Origin: Bilabrum cf. latius
Lineage: Eukaryota
Reading direction: 5' to 3'
Length of the DNA stretch: 64,000 bases
Assembly: GCA_965178125.1 (NCBI GenBank)
Contig: OZ237739.1
Location: 1,364,001 to 1,428,000 of the forward strand
Below are positions 1-64,000 of the stretch, one piece after another; position 1 is the first letter of the stretch, and every line of letters starts with the position of its first letter. A program made the position numbers and the translations under genes. The notes beneath the pieces are model-generated. The model made no database searches. It was not told the DNA's origin and saw only the letters and a list, made by a program, of their open reading frames with translations.

Positions 1-2821
1 GCACCAGAATCAGCACGCCCAGCCAGCAGGAGCCCCCTGCCGCGAAGTACTTCCCGACTGTACTGCACGACACGCTGCCTTCTTTCCTGTCCTCTTCTGA
101 GGTGAGCGTCCCGCTCGCTGGCTTACCAGTAGCCGCCGGCTTCTCGTCAGCCGACGGAGCGGCGGCCGCCTGGAGAACATCACTCTGACTGGAGCCTGCG
201 GCAGAGGCGCCACCGTTGCTACTGGGCTGCGCGGACCCGCCCTGCCCGGCAATCTTGCTGGCCTCCTGGATGCCGACATCCACGTCGCTGGCTGCAGCTG
301 TCGCCTGGGACGCGGCCGCCCCAACGTTCGCCTGCTGGTTGCCCGCCGCCGAGCTTTGCGCGTCATCTTCGCCGTCTTGCTTGCCGCTTGCCTCGTTCGG
401 ACCATTGGTCTAGGCTTCCGATGCGGGTGGCGACGGAGAGGGCGAGGGCGACACGGAGCAGCCGTACATGCCCATGTCGACCCCCGCATCGCATAGCTGG
501 GCAAAGCTGCCCGTGTGCTGCACCTCGCCCTGGGCCAGTATCACCACCTGGTCGCACTGGGGCAACCACTGGACCTGGTGGGTGACCAGCAGCACGGTCT
601 TGCCCTGCTGCCGAAGCATCCCGTCGATGCACTGCTCCCACAGGTGCCGCCCCACGTGAGTGTCCACGGCGCTCAGGGGATCGTCCAGCAGCACAACGTC
701 TGCGTTTGCGTACACCGCCCTGGCCAGCGTGATGCGTGCCTTTTGTCCCCCAGATGCGTTGAACCCCCTGGCGCCCAGCTCTGTCTGGTCCCCGTTCGGA
801 AACATGGCCAAGTCGCTCTCGAGCGCGCAAGCCCGCACCACCTCCCGATACCTCTTCTCATCGAACTAGCTGCCAAACAGGATGTTGTCTCGAACAGAGG
901 CATTGAAGATCCACGCCTCCTGCGCGACGTACGACACGCTGCCGCGAAGGCCCGAGCTCCCGCCCAGCTTCACCATGCGGCCCAGCAGGGCACCCAGCAG
1001 GCTGCTCTTGCCCGAGCCTACCGGCCCAGCAATGCCCACCACGGACCCCTTCGGCACCTCCAGTGACACGTCTCGCAAATGGAAGCCGCCGCCCGCACCG
1101 GTGCCGCTCTTGTCCACTGGCTGTATCACCTTACCACTGGCCGTCTTATCGGGAGCTTCGGTGCTATCGCCACCCTTGGTGGTCTGCTTGCTCTGGCCGC
1201 CTGCCGCCTTACCGCCCCCTCTGCCTGCGTTGGGTCCCGGTGACGGAGCGCCTCTTCTCTGCAGCACCTGCGCAAGCGCTTGTTCCCTGTCCCTGTCTTC
1301 CTGCCGGTACCAGGCAAAGGTGGCGCCATGCAGCCGCACGGCCACGGGTCTGGCCTCCGCATCCGCATCGGCATCCGCTGCACTGGCACTCTTGTCTCCA
1401 GCTGAGGGCGCTGCAAATCGCCCATTGGTTGGGTGTGACCCGTCTCCGTTCAGCTCAGCTACGGCCTCATCGTCCGCATCTGTCGACCCGGGCGCGTCCG
1501 CCAAGGCCACCGCGGTGCTGGAGCTAGCCGATCCGCTATGTGATGGCTTGTTCGCGCTGGGCGAGTTGGTTGGCTCGTCTTCAAGTCGGTCAGGCATGTC
1601 CCCGCGGGAAGCTTCTGGCAGCAGCAAGAAGGCCTGTGCCCTTTCAACGCCCACGATCGCCTCGCTGACGAAGCGCAGGCCCAGGGGTCCAACCGTGACT
1701 GGGAACCGCAGCACGTTGAACAGAGCCAGCACGCTCCACGCGGCATCCGCCCTGAGGGGCTCCCCCAGCACCAGGGAGTGGAAGAGGAACGTGACCAGGC
1801 CAACGATGAGGCTGGAGGTGAAGCCCAAACCGGAAGAACACGCCCGGATCCACGCGGCCGTCCGCAGGTGCGCCACTTCCTCCCCCCTGATGTGCGCCAC
1901 CCTCGCAGCGAAAGGGGCCTCCCAGGCCATCTGCTTGACCAGGCGGATCCCGCGCAGCACCTCGGTCATGAGACGGACCCTCTGGTCGGTCAGACGGACG
2001 GCCTGCCTCCGCACCCCCGCAAACAGCCGGCCCAGGTATGCCTGCACGAGCACGAGCACGATCATCACGGCGAAACCAACCAGCACGGCGGGGCCCAGGA
2101 TCCACCACTGCAGGGCCATGATGACGACGATGGCGACTGGGCCGGAGATCAGGAACTCGCCGTATGTGCACGCTTCCAAGAGCCTCTGCAAGTCGGTGCT
2201 CGCGAGATTCACGAGCTTGGCTGCGCTGAAGCGCACCGCCCGCAGCTTAAGCGCCTTCGAGTACAGCATCGCGCGGAAGGCGGCGCGGAGCCTGATGCCG
2301 GTAAGAGTGGCCACAAACCAGTGCCTGTTCACAAAATAGGACCTCCCCGTCTCGCTCACCAAGAACCCGCAGACCAGGAGCAAGCCGGTCGACAGTGACG
2401 TGTCGATCCCATCGCCGGAGCCCTCGACGTACTGTATGACCCAACGAAGCAAGAAAGCGTTCCCTAGAATGGCAAAAGAGAGCCATCCCATCTTCCACGA
2501 GAATACCTGGACGAACCGCCAGAATACGAACGTGAACACGCTCCCAAGGAGCGACGGCTTTCTGTTTTCCCGCTCAGCATCGCGCTGTTCCTTCTCCCAG
2601 ATCTCGCTGAGCTACGTGTGATTCGTGGCGGCACAGTCTACTTTCCTTACATCTGGTAAATCTTCGGGCTATAGGGTGCGCTCGTAGCCGGTTTGAATGA
2701 GCGGCGAGAGCCAGAGGAAGAGCGTTTCAGCGCACCACGAGGATTCAATGAACGACCGGTTGCCAGTCGGTTGCGTCGGATTGTGCTTCTTTGGCGCCTT
2801 TGCTACTGTCTGATTCGACAT
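1..2821 (-). CDS. ABCC/MRP-family ABC transporter (TMD1, NBD1 and linker; 3' part runs off the window)
   Basis: ATG at 2821 (MSNQTV). One frame through TAGs at 2669, 2612, 866 and 410. FLWLSPLIQTG, a TM domain, Walker A GPVGSGKSS, YVAQEAWIFNASVRDNILFG, signature ASGGQKARI, Walker B LLDDPLSAVD, and the MRP linker EEDRKEGSV...KYF near base 100. Confidence 0.93.
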
Positions 2822-2992
2822 GTGGTGCTTTATGTCTGCCTGCAAACGGTGCCCTGGTGTACCGCCAGGCCTTGGGCTACGATTTCTCCCTTTTTCCTTG
2901 CTCGGTATATCCGGAAGTGCTTCAAGCTTGGCCGGAGCAACAGCAGCTGCCCCAAGTCCGCAGCGCGCCCAAAAACGCACAAAGCACCGACA

Positions 2993-5900
2993 TCACACCG
3001 CGCCTCCAATGGCCCTCACAAATGCATCGACATTCGGCACCGTCACGACGGCCCCCGCCCTCTTCATGTGGTCCAAGTAGGCCTCCCAGTCGGGGCTGCT
3101 CCTCAGCGTGCGTGCGCTCCCCACCACCCAGCAGCAGTAGCGCGCCCTCGTCAGCGCAACATTCATACGCCGAACGTCGCGCACGAACCCGATGGTGGCG
3201 ACTCGCCGCGCCCTCGCGCCCCCACCAGCAGCAGCAGCAGAAGGGGCAGCACCCGCGGCACCGGACCTGCCTCCATCCCCACTTGCCAAAGCACCGGAAC
3301 CTACTCCCTTGCCGATCGCACTCGTCACACCCTTCTATGCAGCAGCAGCAGCAGCAGCAGCAGTGGTGGCGCCCACTGCAGCGGCCGGAAGGGGCAGCAG
3401 AGCAGCTCCGGGGGCATGTCCCAGCAGCGAGGACGGGCCAGCCGACGAGGACGACGACGACGACGAGGAGGAGGAGGACGAGAAGGAGGAGGAGGATGAA
3501 GAAGAGTCGGCGGCAGCAGCAGCTGACTTGACCCCAGTGCCCGCTGCCGCAGTCCCGCTAGAAGCACCGCCCACCTTCCCGTCCCCTCCGCTGCCCATGT
3601 CCGCCAGGTCAACGCCCACAGGAGGCGGCTGTGCCCGCACGGTGGACAGCACCACCACGTCCCTCTCCTGCCCCTGGGCCCCGTCCACCGTGCTGGCGTC
3701 CACACGGCAGGGCGCCAGGGGACGGTCCGGGAACGGCTGGGTCAGCGGGTCCACTGGCTTGGAGAGACCCCCATCGGACCCCTGGGGTACGGGTGCGCCG
3801 GATGTCCCCTTGAAGGGGTCGTAACCCCCGGAGGCGGGGCTGCCCTCCTGTGTGGCAGCCCGGGCGGCCCTCTCCGCGGAGGCGTTGGCCAGCCGCACCG
3901 CAGTGCCGTGCATCTCTCTAAGCAGGGCCAGCTGCTTCTGGTACGGTGTCAGCAGGAATACGCTCCCCTTGAAGTCGTGCACCGCCCCTGTGGGTGCCTT
4001 GCCCCTCCATCGCCGCAGCGCAGTGACCAGGCCCACGGCGAGGCGCGCCTCGGCAGGGTTGGCGTGAGACCTGCCCTCCAGCAGCCCGGGCGTACTCGCG
4101 GAGAACTCGGGCTGCGCGCCGGGCACGCGTGTCGGTTCCGCAGCGCGCGCGGCGCCGCCGTGCCCCTTCTCCCCCCCTTCCAGCACGTCGAAGAACACCG
4201 TCGGCCTGAAGTGGGACAGGGCGTGCAGAGCCACCGCCCTGGCAGCCCCTTGCACCGACACCGCGTCCCTGACCCTGCCACCGTAGAAATGGGTCGATGG
4301 AAAGGCGGAAATGGCAGGGTGCGAGCGGTACTGCGTGTCGAGAAGGTGCACCGGGTGCCCGCCCGCCTGCAGCCTCGCGAATAGGCTGCGGCTGAGGCCC
4401 CTGGCGGCGGCGAGGGGCGACAGGATGGTGGCAGGCAGCTGCTTGGGGTCCCCCACCAGGACGCACCGCGTGGCGCCCTCCCGCAGTGGGATCAGCGTGG
4501 CCGATTCGGTCGCCTGTCCTGCCTCGTCGATGACAACAGAGGCGAACCGCCGGCCCCGCTCCCTGCGGAACTGCTCCAGGGCTTCCACAGCGGAGGAAGA
4601 CAGCGTGGTGAACACGATCTCGCAGGCGTCCAGCAGAGCCATCCGGAGATTGTCCCTTATCTCGCCGTGGCGCATCCGGGTGGCACCACCCCCGCCACCA
4701 AGCGCGTGCCTCGCGCCTTGCCTGGCCGCCATCGAGGCAGCGTTCCTGTCCGCCGCCAGCCTCGCCCACGCGAATGCCTCTCCCTTGCAGCTGTGCAGGT
4801 GGTACGCCTCGAGGCACGCGATCAACCGGCCGGCAATCTCGGGATGCACCACGGCCTGCTGATTTCCGCCAGCCGCAGATGCTTTGCCGCTTATGCCGGA
4901 CGGTGCCGCGGGTGCTTTGTCCGCAAGCAAGCGGTGGTGCCTGCGGATCCGCTCCAACTCAGCGGCGGCTTCTGCCATCCCTCGCTTGGCGTGCTCCAGA
5001 CCAGCATGCGCGCGCACCGCGTCGAGGCATAGGTACCCCTGGAGCTGGGACTCCAACGACACGCCCAGCCGCTCCACGGCGGGGCCCACGCCTGTCCCCA
5101 CTCGCACGATGGGCGGGCTGAACGGTCGCAGGGTCCCATCCAGCATGGCCCCAGGTTTGGCCACCCGCTCGACCAGATTGTCCACCGCTGCGTTCGAGGG
5201 CGCGGCCACGAGCAGCCTGGGTCTCAGCTCCAGAGCGTCCCTCACCTGCTCGAGATAGTCGGCGGGCCTCAGCTCCGTGCTCAGCAGCCAGCGCGCCAGG
5301 CCGTGCACGCCGCGGATCGCTGCTGCGGAAGTCGTGTGCCTCTTCCGGCTCAAGAAAGCGTTGATCGAGTCCCCGTCTTGGCCCCCGACCGCGTGGCCTG
5401 CCTGTCGCAGCGCCGACTGCATCGTCGTTTCGAACACGGTCGGCTTGGAGGCGCGCTTGCTCTTACGCTGAATGCTCATGGCTAGCCCTGCAGCGTTGGG
5501 ATGACCGCGCTCGGAGCTTGTCTTCGCCCGCTTGGGTGCCGGTGCACCCGTCGCAGGCTTGGCTTCCCTCCTTTTGGGTCCTGGCTGGACGTCAGTGTCC
5601 CCGTCATTCTGCGGAGAGTCGCGCTCTGGGCTGGGGCTGCGGGGCCGCTTCTGGCCCACCTCACCCGCCCCAAGGGAGCCTGCATGCTCGTCGTCCTCCT
5701 CATCCTGGTCCAGCCCGGGCGGCATGTCTGGATCCATGTCTTCTGGTGGTTCGTCCTCGGGCGAGGGCGGCGGCTCGTGCTCGCCTGTCGAGCTGCTGGA
5801 CGCCGTCCCCGACGCCACGCTTTGCCCCAGAGCGGCCTACCCTTCGGGAGCGGGCCCCAGGATGCCCAAGCTCGCCGGCTCTGGTGCTTGGCCTGCGCCA

Positions 5901-7831
5901 GCACCTCCGGTATGGGAAGCATCCCCGTGGCCCAATGTCCCGCTCGCACTTCCAGACCCCGTGGAAACGTCTGCACCCGTGCCAGTGCCCGACCCAGCCT
6001 GCCTGGCATGCTCCCCTGCCTGCAGAGCCGCCTTGTCCTCTTTTTGCAAGGCCTCCTTGCCGCGCAACAAGGATTCGTGATACCCCGCCACCGCGCTCAG
6101 GTGCAGTGCATTGAGCAGCTGCAGCACCGCCGTCGACTTGCCCGTCCCTGGCGGGCCCTGCACCAGGGTGAAGCCCCTCCGCGTGGCGGCCCCCACCACG
6201 GCGTGCATCTGTGAGGGGTTCAGACGACCTTCGAGGTGATGCATGAAGGCGGGAGACAGTCTCAGCACGTCGTGCGTCTGCTTCACCGCTGCCTGCACCA
6301 GTCCGTTTGTGCGGTCACAGAACGTGGCGTAATCTTTGGCCCTGGCTTGCCGAGCGGTGTCGCCGTCGCAACCGCCTCCGCTGGTGCTGCTGCTGCTGCT
6401 CTGGCCCCGCTTGGCATCCTACACGATGGAATGCATGAGACTATCCGCTGGCAGCCCGCGCATGAGCGGCACCCGGAGGCAAGGGTGCAGCGAGGCCGCG
6501 CCAACGGCCGCTGCCAGCTCCCTTAGCGCCGTGACCGAGTGTCCAAGCGGCCACGCAAAAAGCACCGGCCTGTCTTTCTCATCCCTGTGCACCTGCCGCC
6601 CCCTCCACAGCCCCATGAAAGCGTCTGCCTCCTCGTCCTCCTCCCCCTCCTCCTGCTCCCATCCGTCCGACTCGGCCGGCAGCTGCACCCGCGCCCGCCT
6701 GTCCCCATCCACCACAACCTCGTGCAACCGGTCCGAGTCCACGAGCACACGGGCCGCTCCAGAGTACACCCCCCCTCGCACCATGGCCACGCAGTGCGGG
6801 AAGGGCGGGGCCCCCAGTTCCCTGCGTAGCTCTGACACGTCCGCGCTGGTCGCTGGCCCGCGGCTGAACGGATCCGAGCTGGACCCTGCGCCTGGCGCCC
6901 GATTCGCCAGCCGTCTCCTGCGGCGGGAGCGCGCCTGCTCCCAGCAATCCATAGGCGAGAGCTGCGCGCCAGTGGTGGTGCTGCTGCTACTGGCGGCACC
7001 GCTAGTACCCTGGCCGTCCGCCGCGCCCGATGTCAACCCGGAGCCAAATATCCTCCGGTCGGCGTTCTCGTGCTAGCCCAGCTCCTGCCACAGCCCCGCG
7101 CTCGAGCTTGAGCTCGATCCGGCGACCGTCGCGCCGGCGGACCGGCCCTCGCTGCGGCCCGTTACTGCGGCCTGGTGCTAGATCCACTGAGCGCATCGAG
7201 AATCCGCGCTCAGCAGCACGAGGTGAGAGTCGCCCAGCCGGGAGCGCCACGCGCCACCCGGAGCAGCTGCTTGCGGGGGCCATCGGAGATGGGAGGGGAG
7301 TTCCTCGGTGGCAGTGGAGGTCGATGCTCTTGATTTAGAAGACAACTCCTGGGATTTTCCGGTCGACGATACCACGCGGCTGCCTGGGGCGGACTTTGGG
7401 AGTGAGCGTGCTGCGACTCGCTTGGGCTTCTTCGGCCGGATCGCTACCGGTGCTCGTAGCTCTCCAGTGGCAATGCAGCCCCTCATGAGGTCTGAACTAG
7501 CATCTTGTTTCTCGTTCTTTAGCACTCTTGTCGTAACTGGATGGTATACCACAGGTAGGCCGGCAATTGGCCACGGTGCAGAAGGATGCTCGCCTGGCTT
7601 TGACCGCCTTGATTTCCCTTTTATGTGGGATTCCAGCTCCCCCCGAGCTCCTTCGCTTGCTTCATCGATAATGAGAGGCACGGTCCCCTTTAAGTACTGT
7701 GTTGTGGTTGTGTAGGATTCACTTGTGTGGGGCAGCGACGCGGAGTAGGCTTGCTGGGCCACTTCGCATGTATGCGCCAGACTAGGTAGCCGGAGCAAGA
7801 GAAGAAGGGCCTTATCTAGGTCCAGGCTCAT
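2993..7831 (-). CDS. SEN1/senataxin/Upf1-like SF1 RNA/DNA helicase
   Basis: One frame via TAGs at 7178, 7073, 6419, 5837 and 3335, ending at TGA 2993. Motifs LNPSQ, QGPPGTGKS, APSNAAVD, VIDEAGQ, LVGDPKQL, QYRSHP, TVDGAQGQE, RRMNVALTRAR. The start codon is less certain. Confidence 0.88.
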
Positions 7832-7986
7832 ACGTTCAGGTGCTAGCGCGTGCGCTTTGCCGGAAAAGGTGGTCTACGCAGTTTGCAAATCCGGAGCCGG
7901 CGAATGGGGCCCTGCAACCCCCACAAAACATTCATTCTCTTGATTCGCGCGTTATATTTAGATTATAATACTCTCCATTGATCGGT

Positions 7987-9338
7987 ATGTCGGGCGTGCC
8001 AGAATTTGATCTGAGTAAGGCAACACAGCCCACCATTCTGCGCTGGCACCAGGGCTGTTGGGCATCGCGATAATCTTTGTGTTATGGTGCTTCATGAATC
8101 GCAGAGAAACCACAGTACGACCAGTCAAGGTATTTAGGTCGCGTGAAGCAGTTTTTCTAGATTACAGATCCGCTGTAAGTTGGCGAGTTGACAGTGTTCG
8201 CATCGAGAGGCAGAAGATGCAGGCAACAAATCCAGCAGCAACGTATTCCTCAATGCATTCCTTGCGCAGGTCGCTGCTCAACTCAGATTCAGATCTGGCA
8301 AAGGCTCGGGCGGACTTGGCTACGTTCGAGGGGCACCAAGCACTTCGCGCTAAGGATTCCTCGTTGCCTCGCCTGCCGCCATCGTACACTGACGAGAAAC
8401 TATGGAACGCACGGCGAATCGTTGAGTCAATGTGCCACAGCGATGACGGGCATGTCATCCATCCGTTGCTCCGCATGAGCGCATTTCTTCCCGTGAATCT
8501 TCCGATCACGCTGGGGATGACAGTGTTCGGGACGACCACGGCGAGCCAGCTCTTCTGGCAGTGGATGAACCAGAGCTACAATGCGGGCCTGAACTACGGG
8601 AACCGAAACCTGTCAGCTGAAGTATCCATGATGGACCTGGGGAAGAGCTACGTCACAGCGACGGCCGTGGCGTGCTCTACCGCATACGGGATGGGCAAGC
8701 TGGCCCAGGCAGCCGAGAGGAGCCCTTCCCTCCCCGCCTTGCTGCGGTTCGCGCTCCCCAAGTTCGTCCCGTTCGTGGCGGTTGCAACTGCAGGGGCCTG
8801 CAACGCCATCGCGATGCGCTACAAGGAGATCGTGGACGGTATCACGGTGCAAGACGAGGACGGCAACGACCTGGGGCAGAGCCAGGTGGCGGGCAAGAAG
8901 GCCATCTTCGAGGTGGCCCTCACTCGGGTGGCCCTCCCCGTCCCCATCATCCTAGTGCCCCCGCTACTGTCGGCGGGTCTCAAGGCATCGGTCCCCGGCC
9001 TGGGGGGTGCCCTGAAGAGGAGCAGGGGGCTGTCACTGGCGCTGGACATCGGGCTGAGCACCTGCTGCCTCTACTTTGCGCTGCCCTGCGCCATCGCTCT
9101 TTTCCCTCAGCAGAGCTCCATTCCGATCGCCGACTTGGAGCCCAGCATCCAGAGGAAGTACGCGGAATTGCACCCAACCGCGGCGGCAAAATTGGCAGCA
9201 GTCCCTGCCATCGCAGCGGCTGCGGGCGGAGGCAGCCCTGCGGGGGCAGCCGGCGGCTCTGGGGCCGAGGATATCATGGTGGGCAGGGATGGGGCCCAGG
9301 GGTCTGCTCCCATGGCCACGTACAACAAAGGACTATGA
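7987..9338 (+). CDS. SFXN: Sideroflexin (mitochondrial tricarboxylate/serine carrier)
   Basis: Exons 7987-8014, 8105-8174, 8270-9338 with GT-AG introns. PQYDQSRYLGR..FF(TAG 8158)ITDP, FWQWMNQSYNA..NYGNRN, PFVAVA, YNKGL, then TGA. Confidence 0.93.
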
Positions 9339-9519
9339 GTTCTCTTGAGCGTAACTTTTTGTCATGCCTGTCAAAATGAGCTCGGCAGGACGAGTGCTTT
9401 ATGTGTGCGTGGCAACAGCGGGGCGTGCCGCCAACCTCCATGTGTCGAATTGTGGTTGGGACTGGCCTTGCTCGGTTGCCTTGCACGATACTATTTCACC
9501 TCCAGAGTCACTTTTTCAT

Positions 9520-11997
9520 TCACGTTGCACCTTTAGCCCTGGCCTCTTGCAACCGTTGCTGCCTCTGATTGAGCCTTGCCACGTAGCTGAGCTGGGCCTT
9601 CTCCCCAACCCTGGCAGATGCGGGAGTGGCAGAAGCAGCCGCGCTCGAGAGGTGCACCACGGTGGACACCCCCGACATATCACGAAGCGCTGCCGGCTTG
9701 ACGACATTCTCTAGTTGTTCGCCCGTACCCCTGCCTTTCGCAGCGCCGTCTTCGCTAGCCTTCGACTCGTGCTTGGGACCCGTGTCGCGCTTTCCGCCGC
9801 CCCTCGTCTTGCCGCCCCCCTCTAGAGCACGACCGCCTCCACCAGGATTCTTGCCGCCACCCTGCCTCGCTTTCTACGTTCGCCCACCCATCTGCTTCGA
9901 GGGCCGCCGCCCAACAATACCAGCGCGCGCATCACCGCCTGCCCGAGCATCCGCACGAGACGCCGAGGTACCGGAAGAGCTGGACGAAGCTAAAGCACTT
10001 GCACCGGCTGCGACAATACCAGGACCTTCCGTCCTCGATGACACGTGGAACTCATTGGGCTTGCCGGGCGACTGCTGCTGCATCGGGGCGGCCCCGCTGG
10101 CCTTGGCCTCTTCCATCTGCTGCTTGCGCTTCCGCTGGAGCGCAAGCCTCTCCTTGAGGCTGAGCTTGGACTCGTCGATGGGCCCGTCAGGCAGTGGGCT
10201 GCTACTGCCTCTGCTCGAGAGGTGCACCACCGTAGAGACCTTGGACAGGTCCCGGATATCCGCCGGCTGAGCCACCTCTGCGTCAGCTGCGTCACCGCCT
10301 GACTTGCCGCTCTTGCCGCCGCCCTTGCTCTTGGAGCCGTGGTGCTTTCCATCCTTGGCTCCTGCCCTGCTCCCAAGACTGTCCCCAGACTGGATCCGAG
10401 GCCGTCTTCCGCCGTGCCCGGACCCCTTGCTGTGATGCGATCCCGCCCTGCTCCTGCCCCCATGGTGGGAGGGCTTCCCCTCGGCGAGCTCCACCATGAG
10501 GGCAGGGCCTGAGGCCCCCTCCCCCCTGCCCTTGCCCGTGCTGCCGCGCCTGCCGCCCCTGTCCCTGCCACCATCACCTCTACGGTCAACTGGACGGTCG
10601 GACCCGCCGGGATGACGGCCTGTTCCCCTGCCACGGCCCCTGCCGATGCTCCCGCCGAGTCCACCACCCGCCGCACCTGCCCTGACGGAAGCAACCCGCG
10701 GGGCCATCGTGCCTCCTTTCTTCCAGCGGCCGCTGGCGAGACCCACCGGCTAGCTCGACACAGCCTTGGCCGCTGCTGCTAGCAGAGGATCTGGACGGCT
10801 GCTGCCGCCGCCATGACTATGGCCGTGACCGTGTGCGGGGAGGTCTCGCACCTAGCCCCCGCCCTTGCCCCTGCCCCTGCCCCTGCCCCCGCCGCCCCTG
10901 CCCCTACCGCCCTCCCGACCCTTGCCCCCACCTTGGCGGTCCTAGCCCCTGCGGCGGTTGCCATGATCGTCGCGGGACTGCCGATGCGGGACACGCTGGT
11001 GACTTCGGGTGCTGCCGTGGCCCTCTTCGTCCCCATCGTCGCCCTCATCGTCGTCACGCATGGGCGCGTGGGAAGCCGCCGGCCCAGGGTCTGCCCCACG
11101 CGCCGGTCCGCCGGCTCCTGCTGGAGCGCTCGAAGCTGGGCGCCAGGCCGCGCCATCTGGCCTGTCGGTCGGACCAACGTCTAGCTCGTGATCGCTGTCA
11201 GCGTCTTCCATGGGTGAGGACCCCTCGCCACCGTGAGCCGCCGCCTGCTCGTGCTCGCCTTCGTCAAACGAGTCGCCGTCCTCGTCCTCGTCCTCGTCCT
11301 CGTCTGAATCACTGCGATCCCATACGCCATCCGCACCCATTCCGACGCCATCAAAGTCATCAGCTAGCCAATCAATGTTTTCCGGGTCGTCAAACTGTTG
11401 CGGCAGTTTGCGCTTTGGCTCTGGCTGCATCGGCGACGCCCGGGCCATGCCTGCCTCGGAACTCTCTGCGCCATCGTCTTCGCTGCCGTTGCCGGTACCA
11501 AAGGCTTCAGGATGCGCTTCTCCCGATCGTACAGCTCTTTCGATCCCCTCAGGAGCTGGGATGCACTTTTTGCCAATGAAAGAAAACGGGATGACGGTCT
11601 GCTTCACCCACTCCTCGCCGTACATGGTGTAGTGATCCCGAAACATGTCGTTCGACAAAACAAATGCAGGCTAGTGATCTTTTGCGTAGGTTAGCATAAA
11701 GTGGTCATCGTGCGCTTGACTTGGAACTATCACAACGACTTCTTCCTTTTTCAGCTTCTCGAGGAGATCTGACGCAACGTACTTTTCGAAATACCGAGGC
11801 AAAATGGCAAAGGATTTGTGATTCTGGGAACGCAGGCTCTTGACTGCCGCTTCAACTGCACCTAGGTTTGGTTTCTCCTTAGACCCCTCCCCTACCGCTA
11901 CATTCGGCCCGTCAACTACAACCAGAGCTCGGTACTCCTCCGTCCCGCCCATTACAATATCAGTTTGCTCAGCATCATTTTCTGCTACTCCTGCCAT
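9520..11997 (-). CDS. NYN/PIN (Zc3h12a/Regnase-like) ribonuclease domain protein with long low-complexity C-terminus
   Basis: VVVDGPNVA, HDDHF and VLSNDMFRD acidic catalytic motifs. One frame via TAGs at 11671, 10942, 10852, 10750 and 9874, ending at TGA 9520. Confidence 0.82.
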
Positions 11998-24237: not shown

Positions 24238-24329
24238 AATACGTAGCCTACCAAAACTGGGAAGAGTTCACACTTAAGTCGAATTGCCGCGTTCAAGCTA
24301 AGTGGCAAGGCCGACCCCAACGGGTCAGT

Positions 24330-28701: not shown

Positions 28702-28768
<67 letters not shown>

Positions 28769-54023: not shown

Positions 54024-54111
54024 TATGAGTCCACTGATGAGTGTGATGCACGGGACTGTTTGCGTACCGCATATGGGAATCGTCACGCCATGCCAAAGCA
54101 GCAGGTTGGAC

Positions 54112-54173
54112 TGCCACGGTTGGGGGGGCGGTTTGGCCTGATCAATGCCACGGTTGGGGGGCGGTTTGGCCTG
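54112..54173. repeat. ~28-bp tandem duplication TGCCACGGTT(G)6-7CGGTTTGGCCTG
   Basis: Two copies (54112, 54146) between the convergent YPEL and ESF2 3' ends. Confidence 0.85.
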
Positions 54174-54226
54174 TTTAATGCACATGCACCACTCCGGATC
54201 AGGCTGCTGTTGTGTTTCAATTCGAT

Positions 54227-55423
54227 TCATGGCTGCATCGGCGCGCTCCCGCCCTTGTCTTTCTTTCCCTTTTTTGCTTTCTTCTTCTTCTTCTGTTTCT
54301 TGGCCTGTTTCTTCGCTCCCTTGTCCAAATCGGCCATCGCTCCAGAGAGAACGAATCGGCTGTCAGATGCGGCCGCCTGCCCCGATCCGGACCTACCACT
54401 GCTAGCCGCGCCCTTCTTTTTGCCTTCCTATTTCTGCTTCCCGCTGCCCTTGCCCTTCGCTCCCGCCTGTTTCGAGCCTGCGTCTGCCTCTGCCTCTGCC
54501 TCTGGCCTTGGCCTCTTCTTGCCCAGTGCGGCTTCTCCTCCCTCTCCACCCCGAGACGAGCCAGACGAGTCGCCAGCTCGGCCCCCGCTACCGCCTACTG
54601 CAGCGCTACTGCTGCCGCTGCTGCTGCTGCTGCCGAAGCCCCCGGCGACGCCCTCGCTTACCACGGGCAGCTGCTTGAAGTGCCGCCGCACCACGGCACG
54701 CTCGGCTGCGACGGATGGCGCCACCGCTCCTCGCTCCAACACGTCTCTCGCAGATATCTCTCCCGATCTGACGGCCTCCACCGTCTTGCGCTCTTCCACC
54801 CGGTGCAGCGTCCTGGACTTGTCGAGCTGCTGCCTGTATGCTTCCGTGTCGCGCTTCGCCTATGAAAGCTCCGCACGGAGCCGTTCCGAGCGCAGGCGCT
54901 TCTCAAATCGCTGCTTCAGTAGGAGGTGCTGCCACTTGAACCTTGGTAGGTACTTGAGGTTCCACAGGTCGGCGGCGAAATGGCTGCGCTGCGAGCCCTT
55001 GCCGGTAACCATGGGTTGGCTATTGAGCATCGCAGCTACCTCTCTCGCGTCCTTTTTGTTCATAAACTCTATCCACCCCTGAGAGTAGCGCAGTTTTTTG
55101 TTGCCGCCTTGAGCAACCCTGTGCAACCGGGCACCCTCTTCTTCGGCGGCAAGGTACACGCGCCCGATCTCTGCGTGGTCCTCCAGCAGCTGCCTGATTC
55201 TTTCCGGGCGCATTCCGGGTGGGACTCTGCTCATATAACATACGCCCCGTCGGCTCTGCTCCGTCTGAAACTTGCCAAGGGCTTCAGTGCTCAGAAGGTC
55301 AGGTGCAACTGCACCGTCGCTGCCCGAGCTCTTCCCAGAGTCGCTCTCATCGCCCGAACTGGACAACTCTGCAGCTAATTGCTCAATTTCCTTTGCCTTC
55401 GACGCAATCGATACCTTTGACAT
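54227..55423 (-). CDS. ESF2: Pre-rRNA processing protein ESF2/ABT1
   Basis: GVCYMSRVPPGM, YSQGWIEF, DLWNLKYLPRFKW, RAELS(TAG 54860)AKRD. Second TAG at 54428, Lys-rich tail, TGA 54227. Confidence 0.93.
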
Positions 55424-55894
55424 GCCACGGGTAGGCAGAAAGTGGTATCATCTTGAGGCCGTGCCGCCGGGGAAGTTGCGCTCGTCATCGCCGGCGGCGG
55501 CTGCGGTGCCAGTGGTGCGGCGCGACCTTGCCGGCGGCCTGTTCAAGTTTGCACGGACGACAGATGGGATCGGGCAGGCGAGGCTGCACCGCAGTGAGTA
55601 TATGTGTCTTCCACATAATTCAAATCTCTTCAATGCAAGACTGCGCTGATCGCAGGCACACAATCGGCGGCAGGTGATTCGCGGCACAGCCGGGCGAAGC
55701 CAACGGAGCCACACACGAGCACACAAAAAACACCTCAACTGGACCCAGATACGAGCCTCAAAAGCCAATCATGACCCACGCCGCACATCCACCCAGGCTG
55801 CCACTGCCCTTCAAAGCTGGCCCGTTGCGACCACCCGCCCAATCCACGGTGCGACCGCGAGCCGGGGCACAGCCGGCACCTATTGCTCGCTCGC

Positions 55895-56847
55895 TCATTC
55901 CTCTCGCCTCCATCCCAGAACACTGGCGGCGACGGCGATGGCGGCAGTGGCAGCGGCGGCAACCCCCGCTGTTCGGAAGGATGAGCTGCAGTCGGGTGCA
56001 GTCTTCGGGAGCACGTAGTCGCCGGTGCGGCTCAGCTGGCGGGTGGGCAGGCAGGCCGATTTGGCGGCGGCGGCGGTGCTGTGGCGATCGCTCATGCGGA
56101 ACGCAAGGCGCGAGGACCCCGAAACCTTCGCAGCCGTGACACATACGTACCTCCCGGAGTACGAGGTGCCAGTCATGGTCTCGCCCCGCACCCTCCCGAT
56201 GATGTAGGCCGCGCTCGTGAACCCGGTCACCCGCCCCCCGTTGTACATGTCCGTGATGCTCATGGAGAGCTGCTGCTCGATCAGCCGGACGTTGTTCTGA
56301 GTTCTAGACACGGTGTGGTTCCACTTGGGGAAGGGGTTTGCGATCACGCACCTGCGAACCGGACGGAAGCACCGACGAACAGTGGAGAGCAAGGGTGGAC
56401 TTTGCGGCTTGCAATGGCATCTACGACTCTCCAAGGCCTGCAAACACGGAATCAAGGGTACATCCAACAAACTTACAAATCAGTTACAGTCCTTCCCTGC
56501 GATCCGCTGGTGGAGGTCATGCCGTACCGCCCCTTGAGCGAAAAAAAGTTGGTCGAAATGCGCTGGGTAGGTCCGTCAGTGCTTGAGCCATCGTCGTCCG
56601 CCCGAGTGTCATCGTCCACCGCGCGAGCATCATCAGTTCGGCTGCGGTCATCATCGCCTGCTCCGGCGTCGTCAGTGCCGCCAGAAGCATCGTCGCCCGT
56701 GGTATCATCGCCAGAGGTGTCATCGCTACCACCGTCGTCGCTCAACTCGCGGCGAAAGGTTACGCCGGCTGCGTTGTTGTCTACCATAGCCTCAGCTGAA
56801 ACGGAAGCAACGGCAATCGCGGCAAGTACACTCAGGACAGACATCAT
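55895..56847 (-). CDS. Hypothetical secreted / possibly GPI-anchored protein with Asp-Gly-rich repeats
   Basis: Signal-peptide-like MMSVLSVLAAIAVASVSA, DD-rich repeats, frame-preserving GT-AG intron 56476-56352, hydrophobic C-terminus, TGA. Confidence 0.65.
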
Positions 56848-57227
56848 GTTTGCTAGAGAAATGAATAGGGGGTAGCTGGCGCGAGACCCTTGGCCGGTTC
56901 CGCAAGGCGCCGCGCGCGCAGTGCTGACGAATGCTTTCCAGCCACATACACTCTCGAGTCGACAGACGTGGGCACTACACACAAATTGTCGGTAGCATGA
57001 TGCTTGGACGTATACTCGCGGCAACTGGCAGTTCATCCGCTTCGGCTCGGTGCTTGGACATCTTCTTGCAGTCAACTTGTCCACGCTGTAACACTACTTT
57101 GCAGACTCTGCCGCCGAGGCATCAAATGTCGGTACCCCCCCGTCCCTCTCCCTCTCGCTCTCCCGTTTCATTCAAGCCGCGGCATCGCCGCCGCTCCTCC
57201 TCCTCCTCATCCCCATCCTCATCCTCT

Positions 57228-60200
57228 TCATTCACGGACGGCGGCCAGCGCAGATGCTACCTCCCGCAGCAGCCCCTCCGCCGACAGCCTCGGGTCCGTG
57301 CCCTTGACAAACGCGAGCCCCACGTCACCAGCCACCTTGCACTGCATCAGCTCCCGCCGCCGAGCCAGCAGCGTCCCGGCCGCGGCAAGGACGAGCGGCT
57401 GCAAGGAGTTGAGAGCGAGCACACGGTCCCAGAGGGCGAGCACCTGCCTCGGGGCGAGCACGTTGGAGAGCGCGCCCCGGAGCATGGGCATGAGGCATCG
57501 GATCGGATCAGCTCCGATCGACGCCAGGTGTGACCCCAACTCGGGGTCACACAGGGCCAGCACCGCCTCGGACTCGGCCAGGAGGGGCAGCAGCGTGTCG
57601 GGGGCGGATGACACGGCCTGCAGGCGGCACCAGAAGCGCTAGTAGAGGGCGCGGTGCAGCGCCCACGCAGTCTCCTCCCTGGAGCAGACAAGGACGAGGG
57701 GTGCCAGCAGCTGCCCGGTGGGCCCACTTGGCACCACACCGCTGGGGCTGGCCGTGGGCACCGGCCACGGGCCGTCGGGTCCTGCCGGCAGCCGCGTCGG
57801 GCAGCCCGTGGGCCGCACCGTGCACGACTGGGGCAGGGAAGCGTCTCTGTGGAAGGCGACGCTCAGCCTGCTCACCGCATCCACGAATGGAAAGTAGTGC
57901 GCCGAATCGCAGGCCCGCTCCCCCTCGAGTGCAGCAGCCACGTCCGTCAGCAACCGGATGCCAGGGGGCAGGGGCTGGGCGGTGCCCTCAGCAGAGGAGG
58001 GGGCACCGGCAGTTGATGCACCAGCCCCTGCTGTTGCCACCGCTGCCCCATCCAGCACGCGCACGATGCCCCCGGGGGTCACCGCTAGAGCCAGCGCCGC
58101 CTTGGTCGCAAGCACCGCGCTCTCCTGCCCCGAGGGACCCTAGCCCGACCTGCCCGCCTCCTTGACCGCGCTGCGCACCACCCCCACGTGCACCTTGAGG
58201 CCCTGCGAGCAGGCCTTGCCGAACGTGCGGGCGCGGGAGGCTCGAGCTGCCGCCGCCGCCGCCGCCGCCGCCCTGCCCTCCGCCTCCCTCCTGTCCTGCT
58301 CCGCGAACGGATCGGCTGCCGCTGCTCCGGCCACTCCGCCCAGAGCTCCTGCACCAGCGCCCCCGTCCTCGAGAAAGCCGTCCTCCTCGCCATCATCCTC
58401 GTCCTCCTCGTTGGTATCAAAGACGCCCAGTTCCTCCGCATCGATGGCCAGTTGCCCGTCCCCAGCCAGCACGCCGTCGCTGCCCTCGTCCTTCTCCTTC
58501 TCCTTGCTTTCCTCCTCCTCCTCATCATCGTCCTCCTCATCGTCCTCATCCTCCACCTCTTCGCCCTCTGCCGCCTGCTTGGGCAGAGCCGCTGCCGCGT
58601 CTCCCTTGAGCAGACCGAGGGCAGACACGGGGGCCCGGACCCCGCTGCCCTTGAAGAGCCTCGCATCCGCTGCCTCCGTCTCCTCCGCTGCCCGGGCCAC
58701 CTCCACTGGCACGTCGTCGTCCCCGCGGGTAGTGCGCGGCAGCAGCCGGTACGACAGCTGGATCCCCGTCTTGGACGCGCGCAGGGGCACCCTGGCCTCC
58801 CGCAAGAGGGCGAGGTACGCCCTTCTCGCCGCCGTGCGCCAGGCCCCGTCCTCAGCCCGGGACGCAGCACGAGCCTCCGCGCTCGTCACATCACCGGCCT
58901 CCATCTCCTCCGGCACCGGTTCATCCGGCACGGGCACGCCTGCCGCCTCAGCCGCCGCCTCGGCAGCAGCCCCAGCCAGCGCCCACTCGAGTCGCACCCC
59001 CAGAGCGTCCAGCCACAGGGAACAGCGGTCCTGATCGGAGGCGCCCGCTCGGAGCTGTCGCAGCGCGCCCGCAACTGGCCCCTCCCCCTCCTCCTCGTCT
59101 TCCCCCACCACCTGGCTAGCTCTCTCTGAAGGGCCAGCAGCAGCAGCAGCAGAAGCAGCGCCCCCGTCCCCGCCGGCCTCGGCCAGCGCGGCGGCCTTGC
59201 ACTCGGATTCGAACCCGCGCGTTGCAATCGCCAGCTCCTTCCTCTCCGCCCCTAGCCTGCCCTGCGCAGCGGCATCCGCTGCAGTCTTCTTGCTCCTGGC
59301 CTGCCTCGGGGTGAGCGCCCTCGGAGTCGTTGTTCCCTGGCTCGAGGAGGAAGCAGGCCTGCCCTTGCTCGGGGAGCGATGGTCCACGGGCTCCCCCCCG
59401 AAGTCGTCGTCGTCGTAACCCATCCACGCCCCGGGGGCCTCCAGCGCGGCGGTGCGGGCCCGCGCCGATATTCCGTGTGACGAGTGCCCCGGCTCCAGCA
59501 GCCACCCGGCCTCGAAGCGCCTGCTGGCGGTCCCCGGGGCCGAGGGCAGAGCGCCCATGGATGCCAGCCGGGCGAGGAGCCGGGCCCGGCGGGGGCGGGT
59601 GGCGGCGCCCAGGGGTAGCCGGATCCGCCTCCAATCCTCGATCGGAGCCGCGGCAAATGCCTCGCCAGCGCCGCTCCCCGCCGAGCCCCCGGCCTCGCCC
59701 GCGGGGATGGACACCGCTGCCTCGCTGCGGCCCCTGTCCTCGGCAGCAGCGGTGATGATGCCCACTTCCGCGCCCGCATCGCTGGCATCAGCTCCCCCCA
59801 ATCGAACCGCCGCCCCCGCCCCCGCGGCCTCCAGCACGGCCTCCAGCACCGCCTCCTCGCCCACGAGGCAGGCCTTCTGCAGCTCCAGCGGGAACTCCGA
59901 GAGCCGCTTGCCCGGCTGTGACTGGCGGGGGTCCGGGCCCGCGGGCAGCGGCCTGGTGCTGTCAGTCGGGGAGATATCGGTAGCATCAACCGCGGCCCCG
60001 AGCTCCCTGGTTACGCTGCCAGGGCCCATCCCGACGGCGGCGCGCGGGCGGGCAGCCACGCCCAGCCGGATGGGATCCAGCTCCTCCTCCGGAGGCCGCG
60101 CCATGACGGCGCGCTTGTGGCCGTAAGACCTAGCGACCTCGGCAACCGCTCCATAGTCGATGTCGCTGCAGTGGTAGAACTTGTCCCCGGGCTGCCAGCC

Positions 60201-60602
60201 CGTCGGCATTCCTACCTACAGCGACGTCTGCAGCACGTTCCGTTCGCATACTCGCTGCAGCGCCGCAGCACTCGCTCGCACGCTCGGAATTGGTTCGTTC
60301 GCTACTGCGTCACTCGAAGCCGGGAATATTCCATCTGTTCCTGCGGATCCAAGCACACAAGCGGGTGCCGATGCTGTGCCTGGGTTTCCTTCAGCCGCAA
60401 ATCGAAAGCCTGGGTGGAGCTGAAGCTGCATAGAGGCGATGAGTGCGCCATCATTTTGCTGTACTGAAGATATTGCATCGCTGGGGTCCGAACCACCGTT
60501 AGTCTTGAGAGCATCTTGCAAAACTGCCGCGGGCAGCTCGGCCGCATGTGCAACGAGCGGGTGCTGACCGATGGTATCCAGGAGGCGACTTCGGGTTTCC
60601 AT
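57228..60602 (-). CDS. TBC (Rab-GAP) domain protein, TBC1D19-like
   Basis: One frame via TAGs at 60216, 58140 and 57639. DSAHYFPFVD, GVVP...LAPL, LY*RFWCRL, QVLALWDRVL..NSL..LVLAAA, then TGA. Confidence 0.8.
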
Positions 60603-61463
60603 TGCTACGGATCGTGTAATAGAAGAAAAGTGCGCCCGATAGCGCGGTGATCAAAACCAGATGCGGCGGCGCAGTGCTGCGAACGAGCCCGCTTTGTGTA
60701 GGGGCGCCTCGCCGTGACGATTGCCGAGTGGTGGTTGACAGCATTCAACATGTCGGCTCGAAACGCCTGCTGCGGGCACACACATCGCACAGAATTGCAG
60801 TCAAGGATGCTTTCATATACCAGACTCGCTCAATGAGCCAGCTCTCGGCCCTCATGGCGAATGAGAGCCACCGTGACGGACGGTACACGCGTAGTCCACG
60901 AGATTAGAGTCGGCCCCCGCCTCGTCGCCATGACAGTGACCGCGCGGCAGCACTCTCCCAACCCCAATCAGCACGAAATGGCGGCCTGCTGGAGCAAGTG
61001 CCAGGAAGCACGCACGCCGCTCCGCCCAACTGCCCAGCAGGGGCCTGGCCGATACACGAATCAGATGCGTGCTCTGTCGTGCCCTGTCGTGCCCGCCTTG
61101 CGATAGACCGCGGCAATGGGGCGCTCGCCCTGCCGCCGCTGCGTGCACTGCATTGCGCTTCAAGCTACCCGTTCATCAAAATTCCCCCAATAGCTTGTCT
61201 GCCTCAATGCACGCCAAGGCCAAGGCCAAGCGGTGGGACGATCCGTGCCCAGGTGTTTCAACGTGACCACAAGACTAACACGTCGAGTGCCAAGCCCACG
61301 GGCACGGCTGTGGACGCACTCCGTAAGGCACTGTCGGTAGCATAACGTGCTGCATGTGTCCCCCACACTCCCCGTAGCTGTCACTGGCAGCTCCAGGTGT
61401 CGCGCACTACTCCTAGTTGTTTAGAAGTAGTAGTGCTAGCAGCGGCAGCCCCGCTCCATCCCA

Positions 61464-62080
61464 TCACACCTCGTCCTCGGCGAGAAGCATGTTGGGGATG
61501 CCCTTCGTGATGGGGTACGCGCGGCCGCAGTTTGGGCATACAAGACTACCCTCCTGCACGTGAATCTGCGGAGGGAAAGGACATGCGCAGAACGGGGAGA
61601 AGACCTGTGGGCAACGACGAAAAGAGCTCTGTATTCAACGGCGCGGCATGACGGCTCACATCCATGATCAGCTTGTGCACCGACTTCAAGAACCCTTCAT
61701 CTTTTACTGCTCCATCAGGAATTTTCTCGGGTAGACTGGCTACACCAAGCTCAGCCGCAGTTTTTCGCAGTGCAGCCCAGTCCAACTTCGGGATGAGGCC
61801 CTCGATCAGTTCGGCGTTGAAATCGGTCGCCTCCTGGACAAGCCCCCTCGGGTTGGGAGCAATCTTGAGTGGAAATGAAAGAAGCGTACCATCGGTACGT
61901 CTTGCGGTCGCCAGACAAGCCTGTGATTGGGGATTAAACAGGGCGGCTGGTGTTTAGAGGCAGTGTGCTCCAGCAGTACCCAAGCCAAAAGCGATTTGAC
62001 TATTGATTCGTCGCAAATTACATGGACATGATACTTACTTTGACGTTACATACAAGCATATTGTGGGTAAGTAGGCGCAT
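61464..62080 (-). CDS. TRM112: Methyltransferase activator subunit Trm112
   Basis: Exons 62080-62039, 61920-61660, 61565-61464. [41 protein letters not shown], then TGA. Confidence 0.95.
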
Positions 62081-62195
62081 GGTGTGTTAGTCCTCTATTG
62101 GTCTCAAGTGCAACTTCCCCGTTCTGCCTTTGCAATATAACGTTACCTAAACATTTTAAACCAGACTCGAAGCGATCACAATCTGTGTCTCGTTG

Positions 62196-62822
62196 ATGGC
62201 AGCGACTGCGTCGTCTACCCCTGCAAGTGCAACATCATCAACTTCTTCTAGTGTTCTTGACGAGTTCAAGGAATAGACCTTGAACGATGCCTTAAAGCGA
62301 GGGCACGACGTTGTGTTTCTTGACGTTGCGATTGCCGGCAAGAAAGTAGGCAGAATAAAGATTGAGTTGTTCAACTCAGTGACACCAAAGACAGCAGACA
62401 ACTTTAGACAGTTCTGCACCGGCGAATACAAGAAAGGAGGCCTCCCAATTGGATACAAGGGGAGCAAGTTCCATCGCGTAATCAAGGATTTTATGCTATA
62501 GGGCGGAGATTTCATCAAGGGAAACGGTACGGGGAGCCTATCCATTTATGGCTCGCAATTCGATGACGAGAATTTTAAGCTCAAGCACAAGACCGGTGGG
62601 ATGCTCTCAATGGCAAACACTGGGCCGGGAACGGGCACGAACGGCTGCCAGTTCTTTGTTACCACCGTGCCTTGCGAGTGGCTGGACGGAAAGCACGTAG
62701 TGTTTGGGCGGGTTTTGGACACTGAAAGTATGAAGGTAGTCTCCATGGTGGAGAACATCCCGACGAAGGGCAGGGACGTACCGGTGCATGCCGTAGAAAT
62801 AGTTGAGTGCGGACAGCTGTGA
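62196..62822 (+). CDS. PPIH: Cyclophilin-type peptidyl-prolyl isomerase (cyclophilin H-like)
   Basis: [14 protein letters not shown]...[18 protein letters not shown](TAG 62499)[27 protein letters not shown]. Another TAG at 62274, ending at TGA. Confidence 0.93.
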
Positions 62823-63525
62823 ACTTCGTTGAACATGGTACGAAGGTAGCGAATAGAATGACATACACGAGTATGTCGTAAACTTGGGGCATTGGAGCAT
62901 TGGGTGAGGCGAGGGGTGTTGTGGCTCAATTCTTCCTTTCCCTTCAGGGGCTGATGTTGGTGCTGGGCGAGGAGACCTCCGCTGCCTGTCCCCCCAGCTA
63001 GGGCAACCACGACCGTGACGCTGTGGCAGCACATTGACGTACTTCTTGGCGATAGCTGGTTCCTTATGCGAGGTATCTAAGGATGAATCACGTCAGGAGG
63101 TCCAGAACGCAAGCCAGCCTCGGCTGCGGCCACTGCCGGGAGGGCACGGATCGACGGCTCGGCTTATGTTACGCATCCTGCCCGCCTTTAGACAGCTGCA
63201 GAGATCGACGACCAGACGCACGATGGCGGCTGCGCCGTCAGGCAGCCTGAGGAGAGTTCTCCGAGCAGTGTGGGGCAGCCGCACGCCTGGAAGACCTCTG
63301 GTGGAGAACGAACGGGGCGAATTCCAGCATTACACAACGTCAAAATTGTCACTGGCTGCAATTAATTTCCTGCCCCGCGCGAACAACCACTAACATGTCT
63401 CGCATTAAGAGCCAAGTTGGCAATCATCACCATGGTGCACCGCTGTGAGCGCGCCGTTACCACACAGTAAGCAACGCTGCAAACTAACTAGCACAAACGA
63501 GTGCACCCGAAGCAATTTCAACAGC

Positions 63526-64000
63526 ATGAATTTCCTTAGGGCTGCGGTCAGTGGGAAGAGATAGCGCCTGAAGGATGGCGACTACGACCTGGACTTGACC
63601 TACATTACTGATCGGCTCATTGCAATGGGATTGCCTGCCTTCGGCATGGAGGGGATGTATCGGAACGATGGGACAGAAGTGAGCCGCTTTTTAAGGGAGA
63701 AGCACAGGGATGCAGCTTGGATTTGCAACCTTAGCGAGAGGCTGTACGACAAGGAGCTCTTTGACAATCGCGTGAGCGAGCTAGGTTTCCCGGACCACCA
63801 TTCACCTCCATTAGAAATTGCTTTAGGAAATCTATATGCTACGGAATCATGGCTGAGAGCCGGCGAGGCGAACGTTGTTGTAGTGCACTGCCTAGCCGGC
63901 AAGGGCCGCACAGGCGCGATCCTGGGGGGCTTTCTAGCGATGATAGGCACCTTTGCGTTCGAGCCAGTGCGACCCGTGCCCGGAAAATCCCTGTCCGACT
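63526..64000 (+). CDS. PTEN: PTEN-like phosphatase (5' part; runs off the window)
   Basis: MNFLRAAVSGKR(TAG 63562)RLKDGDYDLDLTYITDRLIAMG.PA...EG.YRN, FPDHHSP, HCLAGKGRTG. Confidence 0.88.

Follow-up and report, generated by a model that had tools for sequence, protein, structure and literature searches.

Genetic codes in which UAG and UAA have come to differ in meaning are rare, and they demonstrate that a mechanistic separation of the two codons is possible (PMC5304391, PMC11687900). The first such case shown for glutamine is that of the fornicate Iotanema spirale, in which UAG is read as Gln and both UAA and UGA are stops. In that report, 104 of 119 gene ends carry UAA and 15 carry UGA, a tRNA-Gln with the anticodon CUA is predicted and a T32G change in eRF1 is noted (PMC5304391). 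Two phyllopharyngean ciliates, Hartmannula sinica and Trochilia petrani, also read UAG as Gln and have a predicted tRNA with a CUA anticodon; UAA is their preferred stop (~87-92%) and UGA the rarest (PMC11687900). UAG is described as a leucine codon in exLh, a rhizarian, and in three TARA metagenome-assembled genomes of phyllopharyngeans (PMC5304391, PMC11687900). The reading of UAA and UAG together (UAR) as Gln, of the NCBI table 6 type, is listed for many ciliates, hexamitin diplomonads, some ulvophytes, Amoeboaphelidium and oxymonads (PMC5304391), and code 15, with TAG as Gln, is reported for crAss-like phages (PMC9523058). Here we describe a stretch of 64,000 nucleotides attributed to Bilabrum cf. 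latius (GenBank assembly GCA_965178125.1, contig OZ237739.1, positions 1,364,001 to 1,428,000 of the forward strand; the window in what follows), in whose genes in-frame TAG codons are abundant and most probably read as glutamine.

The interpretation that we favour, with a probability of about 0.8, is that the window derives from the nuclear genome of a eukaryote rich in GC and poor in introns, in which UAG is an ordinary minor Gln codon (~9%), UAA is not a Gln codon, and all the gene ends seen are UGA. As in Iotanema, UAG stands for Gln within genes and at none of the gene ends seen, the reading frames are free of UAA, and the assignment is drawn from UAG at conserved Gln columns. Unlike Iotanema, with its mainly UAA ends, the window has UGA at the ends of 12 of 12 distinct genes, in DNA of 65% GC; it also encodes a mitochondrial-carrier-type sideroflexin, whose best named matches are in oomycetes and not in metamonads. 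With Hartmannula and Trochilia it shares the reassignment of UAG alone, to Gln, but the codon makes up 18.5-31.8% of Gln codons there against 8.6% here, and the window differs in its exclusive UGA ends and in lacking the low-GC character of those genomes. Code 15 of the crAss-like phages involves the same codon and the same residue, but it is viral, whereas the window contains spliceosomal GT..AG introns, confirmed by spliced contigs, and nuclear housekeeping genes; for these reasons a giant-virus origin of the window was considered and rejected. An earlier note on this DNA, made from the sequence alone, had cited Iotanema (Gln) and a rhizarian (Leu) as precedents; both are real, but the list was out of date, as Hartmannula, Trochilia and the three TARA ciliates were missing from it (PMC11687900).

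The case for a code change begins with the reading frames. The window holds no N letters, and its GC content is ~65% overall (56-72% in 4-kb bins). Under the standard code it appears as a field of broken open reading frames (ORFs), the longest of which have 1377, 930 and 834 codons. When TAG is taken as sense, adjacent ORFs fuse and the longest frames reach 2926, 2700, 1653, 1417 and 1141 codons. The longest frames stay as they are when TAA is the codon taken as sense, and with TGA the maximum is still 1377 codons. Curated models were made for 17 genes, all but one of them complete, with a total of 16,699 codons, five tandem paralogs being counted separately. In these models, 11 genes contain a total of 53 in-frame TAG codons, each verified as TAG, of which 28 are on the minus and 25 on the plus strand. 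TAA does not occur in frame, and TGA occurs 16 times, always as the terminal codon of a complete gene (12 distinct). Read in its two other frames, this sequence contains 95 and 69 TAG, 27 and 34 TAA, and 255 and 197 TGA. Since TAA and TGA are common out of frame and excluded from the reading frame, TAG alone is tolerated in frame. With 485 CAG and 76 CAA codons in the models (CAA:CAG = 0.157), TAG represents 8.6% of the putative Gln codons.

The frames continue through these codons without signs of damage. No frameshifts were seen in the TAG-containing genes, and six Pfam domain matches cross a TAG: cyclophilin (codons 57-218, TAG at 114), PDEase_I (codons 2451-2746, TAG at 2504), ABC_tran (codons 639-773, TAG at 709), AAA_16 (codons 680-777, TAG at 749), RNase_Zc3h12a (codons 32-159, TAG at 117) and TPR_19 (codons 66-123, TAG at 117). 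The base that follows the 53 TAGs is G in 23 cases, C in 16, A in 9 and T in 5, similar to the first-base usage of all codons; with no downstream bias, there is therefore no readthrough context. The earlier note had spoken of about 50 TAG codons in 12 genes on both strands, free of frameshifts and with family sequence continuing past them. The absence of frameshifts, the continuity and the two strands agree with what was found here, and the number of codons is close; the number of genes was one too high.

Three further TAGs were set aside during curation. That at 14049 was rejected as a coding codon, being inside an RNA-supported intron of the M1 aminopeptidase gene, as was that at 15913, which is upstream of the start of the same gene; the TAG at 7876 (codon 26 of the helicase frame) precedes the first ATG and was not counted.

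In order to identify the residue, the TAG codons were compared with the corresponding positions of homologues, paralogs and close relatives. The clearest single column is that of the cyclophilin gene, in which TAG 62499 aligns to the Q of MIQGGDF in 3 of the 3 alignments listed from the PDB search, in line with the earlier claim that this codon occupies the conserved cyclophilin Gln. A second comparison is internal to the window: the two N-terminal TAGs of the gene for a UBC-domain protein stand opposite Q and H of the five tandem gene copies, and the first of them, at 49916, falls on the Q of GRKQ in 5 of 5 copies, as had also been proposed.

A close relative is represented by database proteins from one 16.8-kb contig. 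These are 82-96% identical to the products of two window genes, one for a giant protein with cyclase and phosphodiesterase domains (AC-PDE) and one for an RRM-SURP-CID protein (RRM gene), and they are cut into fragments. The 16 TAGs of the two window genes correspond to Q in five cases (AC-PDE codons 553, 749 and 2283; RRM codons 584 and 764), L in one, an alignment gap in one (RRM codon 837) and fragment ends in three, six being uncovered. Against the 96% identical fragments P0020, P0021 and P0023, the AC-PDE TAGs read Q, Q, L and Q, with two further TAGs at fragment ends; the third such end, in the comparison with P0053/P0054, is at RRM codon 472. That three TAGs coincide exactly with fragment ends is to be expected if the relative keeps a stop-like codon at these places. 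The reciprocal situation was also observed, with a fragment of the relative's RRM protein ending opposite a window CAG at 27878. Thus, 6 of the 9 comparable TAG sites are sense codons in the relative (5 Q, 1 L) and 3 appear to be kept. Such fast turnover of TAG sites at 82-96% identity would be expected of TAG/CAG changes that are synonymous.

The same usage extends to a wider clade, at 59-73% protein identity. Four metagenome loci (L001-L004; GC 0.61-0.63) encode M1 peptidases 59-73% identical to that of the window, and L001, L002 and L004 look like one species. In-frame TAG occurs in these loci at four distinct M1 columns, two of them opposite Q (CAG/CAA) and one opposite N; the fourth has C or V in close relatives and Q in E. 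coli PepN. Two CAG codons of the window gene, at 13038 and 12759, have TAG as their counterpart in the relatives.

The residue columns were also scored together. A BLOSUM62 sum over 17 columns (mean within column), which leaves out two later Q observations (RRM codon 584 and the reciprocal site), gave 41.6 for Q, 17.7 for E, 4.4 for K and -28.7 for L. Q is the best of the 20 residues and exceeds E by ~24 half-bits. The codes of exLh and of the TARA ciliates resemble that of the window in that UAG is uncoupled from UAA, but the residue differs, given the scores for L and Q.

The observations that weigh against glutamine come from individual columns. AC-PDE codon 822 is L in the 96% identical relative. 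The column of AC-PDE TAG 37373 (28 homologues) contains H 19 times, L 6 times and Q 3 times, with L in PDE4; the earlier note had placed this codon on a conserved Gln of NxFQVA, and, while the TAG itself was confirmed, the column is ambiguous. Of 19 aligned sideroflexin homologues, 10 extend to the TAG column, 5 with D and 5 with E. For the ABC transporter, whose TAG columns were compared with 150 representatives, R is found at codon 127 in 39 of 128 and P at codon 709 in 73 of 149, with E in 22. Codon 108 of the same gene (n=123) has E in 50, Q in 12, T in 12 and K in 10, codon 861 is mostly opposite gaps, and codon 117 of the NYN RNase gene is at an indel and is uninformative. These variable columns are compatible with Gln and not diagnostic.

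Some of them could be taken as signs of another residue, namely Glu, as in peritrichs and (for UAR) in Blastocrithidia, or Leu, as in exLh and the TARA phyllopharyngeans: D/E at the sideroflexin column and E as the commonest residue at ABC codon 108 for the former, the one L site in the 96% identical relative and the L of PDE4 for the latter. We regard either assignment as highly improbable in view of the invariant Q of the cyclophilin motif, the 5 Q against 1 L in the close relative, the TAGs opposite CAG/CAA in the relatives and the summed scores. The reading of UAG as glutamine, which the earlier note had put forward, is strongly supported by the cyclophilin Q, by the exchange of TAG with CAG/CAA between relatives and by the advantage of Q over E.

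One of the earlier arguments was not used. The codon at 54860-54862 is indeed TAG, but its proposed placement in a QAKR motif of the ABT1/ESF2 family was not counted as evidence. No match for this family was obtained with the protein of the gene concerned (54227-55447, minus strand) in Pfam at E 0.01 or in PDB at E 0.001, and at a PDB threshold of E 10 the sole match was a weak one to an RRM, Rbp15-like 5t9p. The gene may encode an ESF2/ABT1-like protein; the ORF contains 2 TAG (54862 and 54430) and ends in TGA.

The status of UAA has to be considered separately. The gene ends are TGA in 12 of 12 distinct genes (16 of 16 complete), and also at 2 of 2 M1 ends of the relatives (L003 and L004). 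These ends, the GC content at third codon positions of the models (GC3, 0.765) and the fact that table 6 is the commonest variant code (PMC11687900) would all suit a code in which UAA and UAG are both Gln, UGA is the sole stop and TAA is absent through GC richness only. Table 6 codes indeed share with the window TAG as Gln and UGA as terminator. We nevertheless consider this unlikely: if TAA stood to TAG as CAA to CAG, 8.3 in-frame TAA would be expected among the 16,699 codons, and none was seen (Poisson P = 2.5e-4). Moreover, ORFs gained length with TAA as sense only at their 5' ends, before the starts, and TAA is frequent both out of frame and in the non-coding DNA of the window (148, both strands). 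Because of the missing in-frame codons, TAA is probably not a Gln codon.

Whether UAA is a terminator is a second question, and here the counts speak against our interpretation, with TAA at 0 of 12 distinct gene ends of the window and at 0 of 2 M1 ends of the relatives. If TAA ended 10-25% of genes, the probability of finding none in 12 would be ~0.28 to 0.03. The twelve ends fit a rarely used TAA stop and an unassigned TAA codon alike; most likely, UAA is a stop rarely used by this GC-rich genome. The earlier claim that UAG had changed without UAA is accordingly supported, indirectly, by the lack of in-frame TAA, but not, as far as UAA as a stop is concerned, by the gene ends.

A related possibility is that UAG has a dual meaning, sense within genes and stop near their ends, as other codons do in Condylostoma, karyorelicts and Blastocrithidia. 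Modelling genes by reading through TAG hides, by construction, those that truly end in TAG, and in several genes the last TAG is in a homology-free low-complexity tail (codon 1331 of 1416 in the RRM gene, 340 of 406 in the ESF2-like gene). On the other hand, where it can be judged in the 12 distinct genes, the last TAG is followed by more conserved sequence and then by a terminal TGA: this was seen for the cyclophilin, the phosphodiesterase domain, the helicase motifs, the UBC domain and the repeated C-terminal motif of the NYN protein. As there is no context bias at TAG and none of the 12 ends needs a TAG stop, a dual role appears very unlikely.

To follow the TAG codons into other material, public sequencing runs were used. 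Twelve runs contain part of window 54001-64000, none of which is recorded as RNA. Contigs of four runs were compared with window 1-20000; these are assembled contigs, not raw reads. In two of the four runs, X5 and X6, the contigs contained GT..AG joints that were not present in run X1: 8014>8105 and 8174>8270 in the sideroflexin gene, and 14038>14206, 14380>14559 and 14617>14736 in the M1 peptidase gene. The introns removed are 90-178 bases long and of the form GTRAG...GCAG. Because of these spliced, cDNA-like contigs, X5 and X6 were taken as RNA-like.

The earlier note had called for the TAGs to be confirmed in RNA. Contigs of X5 and X6, the runs with spliced contigs, keep TAG at 11 sites (412, 868, 2614, 2671, 5839, 7075, 7180, 9876, 10752, 11673 and 17742), with 0 other letters among the 40 of 117 differences listed. 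They include an X5 contig covering 1-2859 in the ABC transporter gene, another X5 contig covering 16388-18362 in the TPR protein gene, with TAG 17742, and contigs of both runs over the TAG sites of the NYN RNase gene, all with 0 other letters. Furthermore, the same TAGs were found in contigs of the four runs, which bear different organism labels. The force of this result is lessened by the use of assembled contigs and of 40 of the 117 differences, which leaves room for rare edited forms.

These data bear on the explanation that the code has not changed at all and that the in-frame TAGs arise from sequencing error, pseudogene decay, leaky-stop readthrough or editing of the mRNA to CAG. No evidence in support of it was found in the contigs compared (as distinct from raw reads). 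One stop only occurs in frame (53 against 0 and 0), without frameshifts, and a gene may carry up to 10 TAGs, beyond what leaky readthrough could sustain, nor is there a readthrough context. The TAGs are the same in the contigs of four differently labelled runs, some of which have spliced contigs, and in-frame TAG is also found in the metagenome relatives. An unchanged code is, in our opinion, scarcely credible.

In the same comparison, the summed contig depth over the segment 10673-11339 exceeded that of the bins around it by a factor of 20-100 in each of the four runs, and many chimeric joints and loose ends were observed at 11272-11305 and 6380-6660. The high-depth segment is probably an acidic low-complexity repeat common to many genes.

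As for mechanism, the Iotanema report suggests how such a code could operate (PMC5304391). A tRNA-Gln with the anticodon CUA, one base away from tRNA-Gln(CUG), would decode UAG and would pair with UAG and not with UAA; an eRF1 with weakened recognition of UAG may accompany it, together with a glutaminyl-tRNA synthetase that would accept the CUA anticodon. In the window, UAG is distributed over most genes with no particular context, as a plain Gln codon would be. Set against this proposal, no tRNA genes or Rfam families were found within the 64-kb window, and eRF1 is not among its genes.

The genes of the window are arranged in same-strand blocks, minus over 1-24267 and plus over 24776-52758, with the sideroflexin gene as the sole exception in the first block. 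The sign of the GC skew switches at ~24 kb, where the minus and plus blocks diverge.

The minus-strand block begins with a gene for an ABCC-type ABC transporter (2-2992, partial, its 3' end being beyond the window), recognized by Pfam ABC_membrane and ABC_tran, with ABCC5/ABCC4 as best PDB matches (E 1e-126) and 4 in-frame TAGs whose first bases are 2671, 2614, 868 and 412. It is followed by a gene for an SF1 helicase (2993-7951; Pfam AAA_11/AAA_12) with 5 coding TAGs (7180, 7075, 6421, 5839 and 3337), in which conserved helicase motifs come after the last TAG and the frame ends in TGA. The sideroflexin gene, on the plus strand, has three exons (7987-8014, 8105-8174 and 8270-9338; Pfam SFXNs, 8e-85), a single TAG at 8158 within the 70-base exon 2, and a TGA end.

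Back on the minus strand, a gene for an NYN-domain RNase with a low-complexity tail (9520-12021; Pfam RNase_Zc3h12a, PDB ZC3H12B/C) carries 5 TAGs (11673, 10944, 10854, 10752 and 9876) and ends in TGA. The PepN-type M1 aminopeptidase gene (12244-15793, by Pfam) consists of four exons separated by three RNA-supported introns (14039-14205, 14381-14558 and 14618-14735); the joined exons give a complete PepN with the HEYFH...E motif, a TGA end and 0 coding TAG, and the neighbours of this protein in the protein atlas are bacterial PepN clusters only. The block is completed by a gene for a TPR-repeat low-complexity protein of ~2690 codons (16168-24267), with 9 TAGs and a TGA end.

The plus-strand block opens with the RRM-SURP-CID gene (24776-29026; assigned by Pfam), which has 10 TAGs and ends in TGA. 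The AC-PDE gene (29864-38641; Pfam, and PDE4 in PDB) has 6 TAGs (31520, 32108, 32327, 32579, 36710 and 37373) and a TGA end. Its ~2870 codons in one frame encode an adenylate/guanylate cyclase, a STAND-type ATPase, PH and C2 domains and a class I cyclic-nucleotide phosphodiesterase, so that domains for the synthesis and the breakdown of cyclic nucleotides are found within a single protein.

Five head-to-tail gene copies of ~490 codons each then follow (39171-49282), at a spacing of ~2142 bp, each ending in TGA. TAG is present in 0 of the 5, CAG numbering only 5 per copy, and their N-terminal parts carry Cys/His-rich motifs. No Pfam match was obtained for this family; the nearest protein-atlas neighbours of the C-terminal part are vWA-domain clusters (score 0.85), which we treat as a lead only.

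The UBC-domain gene (49877-52758, with its TGA at 52756-52758) contains 6 TAGs (49916, 49934, 50111, 50198, 50885 and 51557). Pfam UQ_con is matched in both of its pieces, which would be separated by an intron at 52048-52190 predicted from the sequence and not from RNA; its removal restores the UBC motif, the junction giving LNPNLYADGKVCLSLLGTW. The codon count treated the gene as a single frame extending to 52051, and the predicted intron leaves the TAG total unchanged. The Cys/His motif of the tandem genes (39230-39320), GRKx.C..G..CTSSKC...RLHPK, recurs at the N-terminus of the gene (49877-49960), and the tandem genes and the UBC gene therefore have a common module. The UBC gene also contains a 33-base tandem repeat of 4.6 copies (51302-51454, plus strand), which encodes DPGDKSKAVAA units.

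The remaining part of the window contains, beside the possible ESF2/ABT1-like gene, a minus-strand gene of ~1125 codons for a protein without a recognised family (57228-60650), with 3 TAGs (60218, 58142 and 57641) and a TGA end. The PPIH-type (SnuCyp-20) cyclophilin gene (62160-62822, plus strand; Pfam 1.7e-46, PDB 1mzw 5e-69) has 2 TAGs, at 62274 and 62499, and ends in TGA. Between these two genes, an ORF on the minus strand (61381-61953) gives a translation reminiscent of the TRM112 methyltransferase-activator family, although it has no Pfam match at E 0.01; the ORF probably represents a single exon of a spliced gene. Finally, 63409-63999 on the plus strand shows the start of a PTEN-like dual-specificity phosphatase, with the HCxAGxGR motif and a weak Pfam DSP-PTPase match (~2e-5), which continues beyond the window.

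With regard to the affinity of the organism, the best named matches of the sideroflexin are oomycetes, at 42-48% identity, with Blastocladiella at 34%; these matches hint at a stramenopile or other SAR (stramenopiles, alveolates and Rhizaria) affinity. A literature search, made mostly without subscription journals and supplements, turned up no stramenopile or GC-rich protist reported to read UAG as Gln. The code itself is of a known kind, that of Iotanema, Hartmannula and Trochilia, and is set apart by base composition and by the UGA-only ends seen. That it represents an independent, undescribed origin of UAG-only reassignment to Gln, outside ciliates and metamonads, is a tentative proposal, an undescribed independent origin having been suggested in the earlier note, and we give it slightly less than even odds. 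It would place the change in a GC-rich, intron-poor, culturable clade, possibly affiliated with stramenopiles and also present in metagenomes (59-73%), with UGA acting in practice as the only terminator and UAA hardly used or not used at all.

Near-identical sequence is found in runs under several organism labels, some of them RNA-like. This suggests that the organism is in culture, so that its tRNA, eRF1 and peptides would be directly accessible. Annotation under the standard code breaks most genes of this organism into fragments, as is shown by the fragmentary database proteins of the close relative. In all the known cases of UAG as Gln whose stop usage was considered here (Iotanema, Hartmannula and Trochilia), UAA is the main stop. 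If the independent origin is true, the code described here would be the first in which UAG alone is reassigned without reliance on UAA for termination. With its 65% GC and with UAA seen neither in frame nor at gene ends, the present case would test whether the route by which UAG is captured depends on base composition, and what becomes of UAA.

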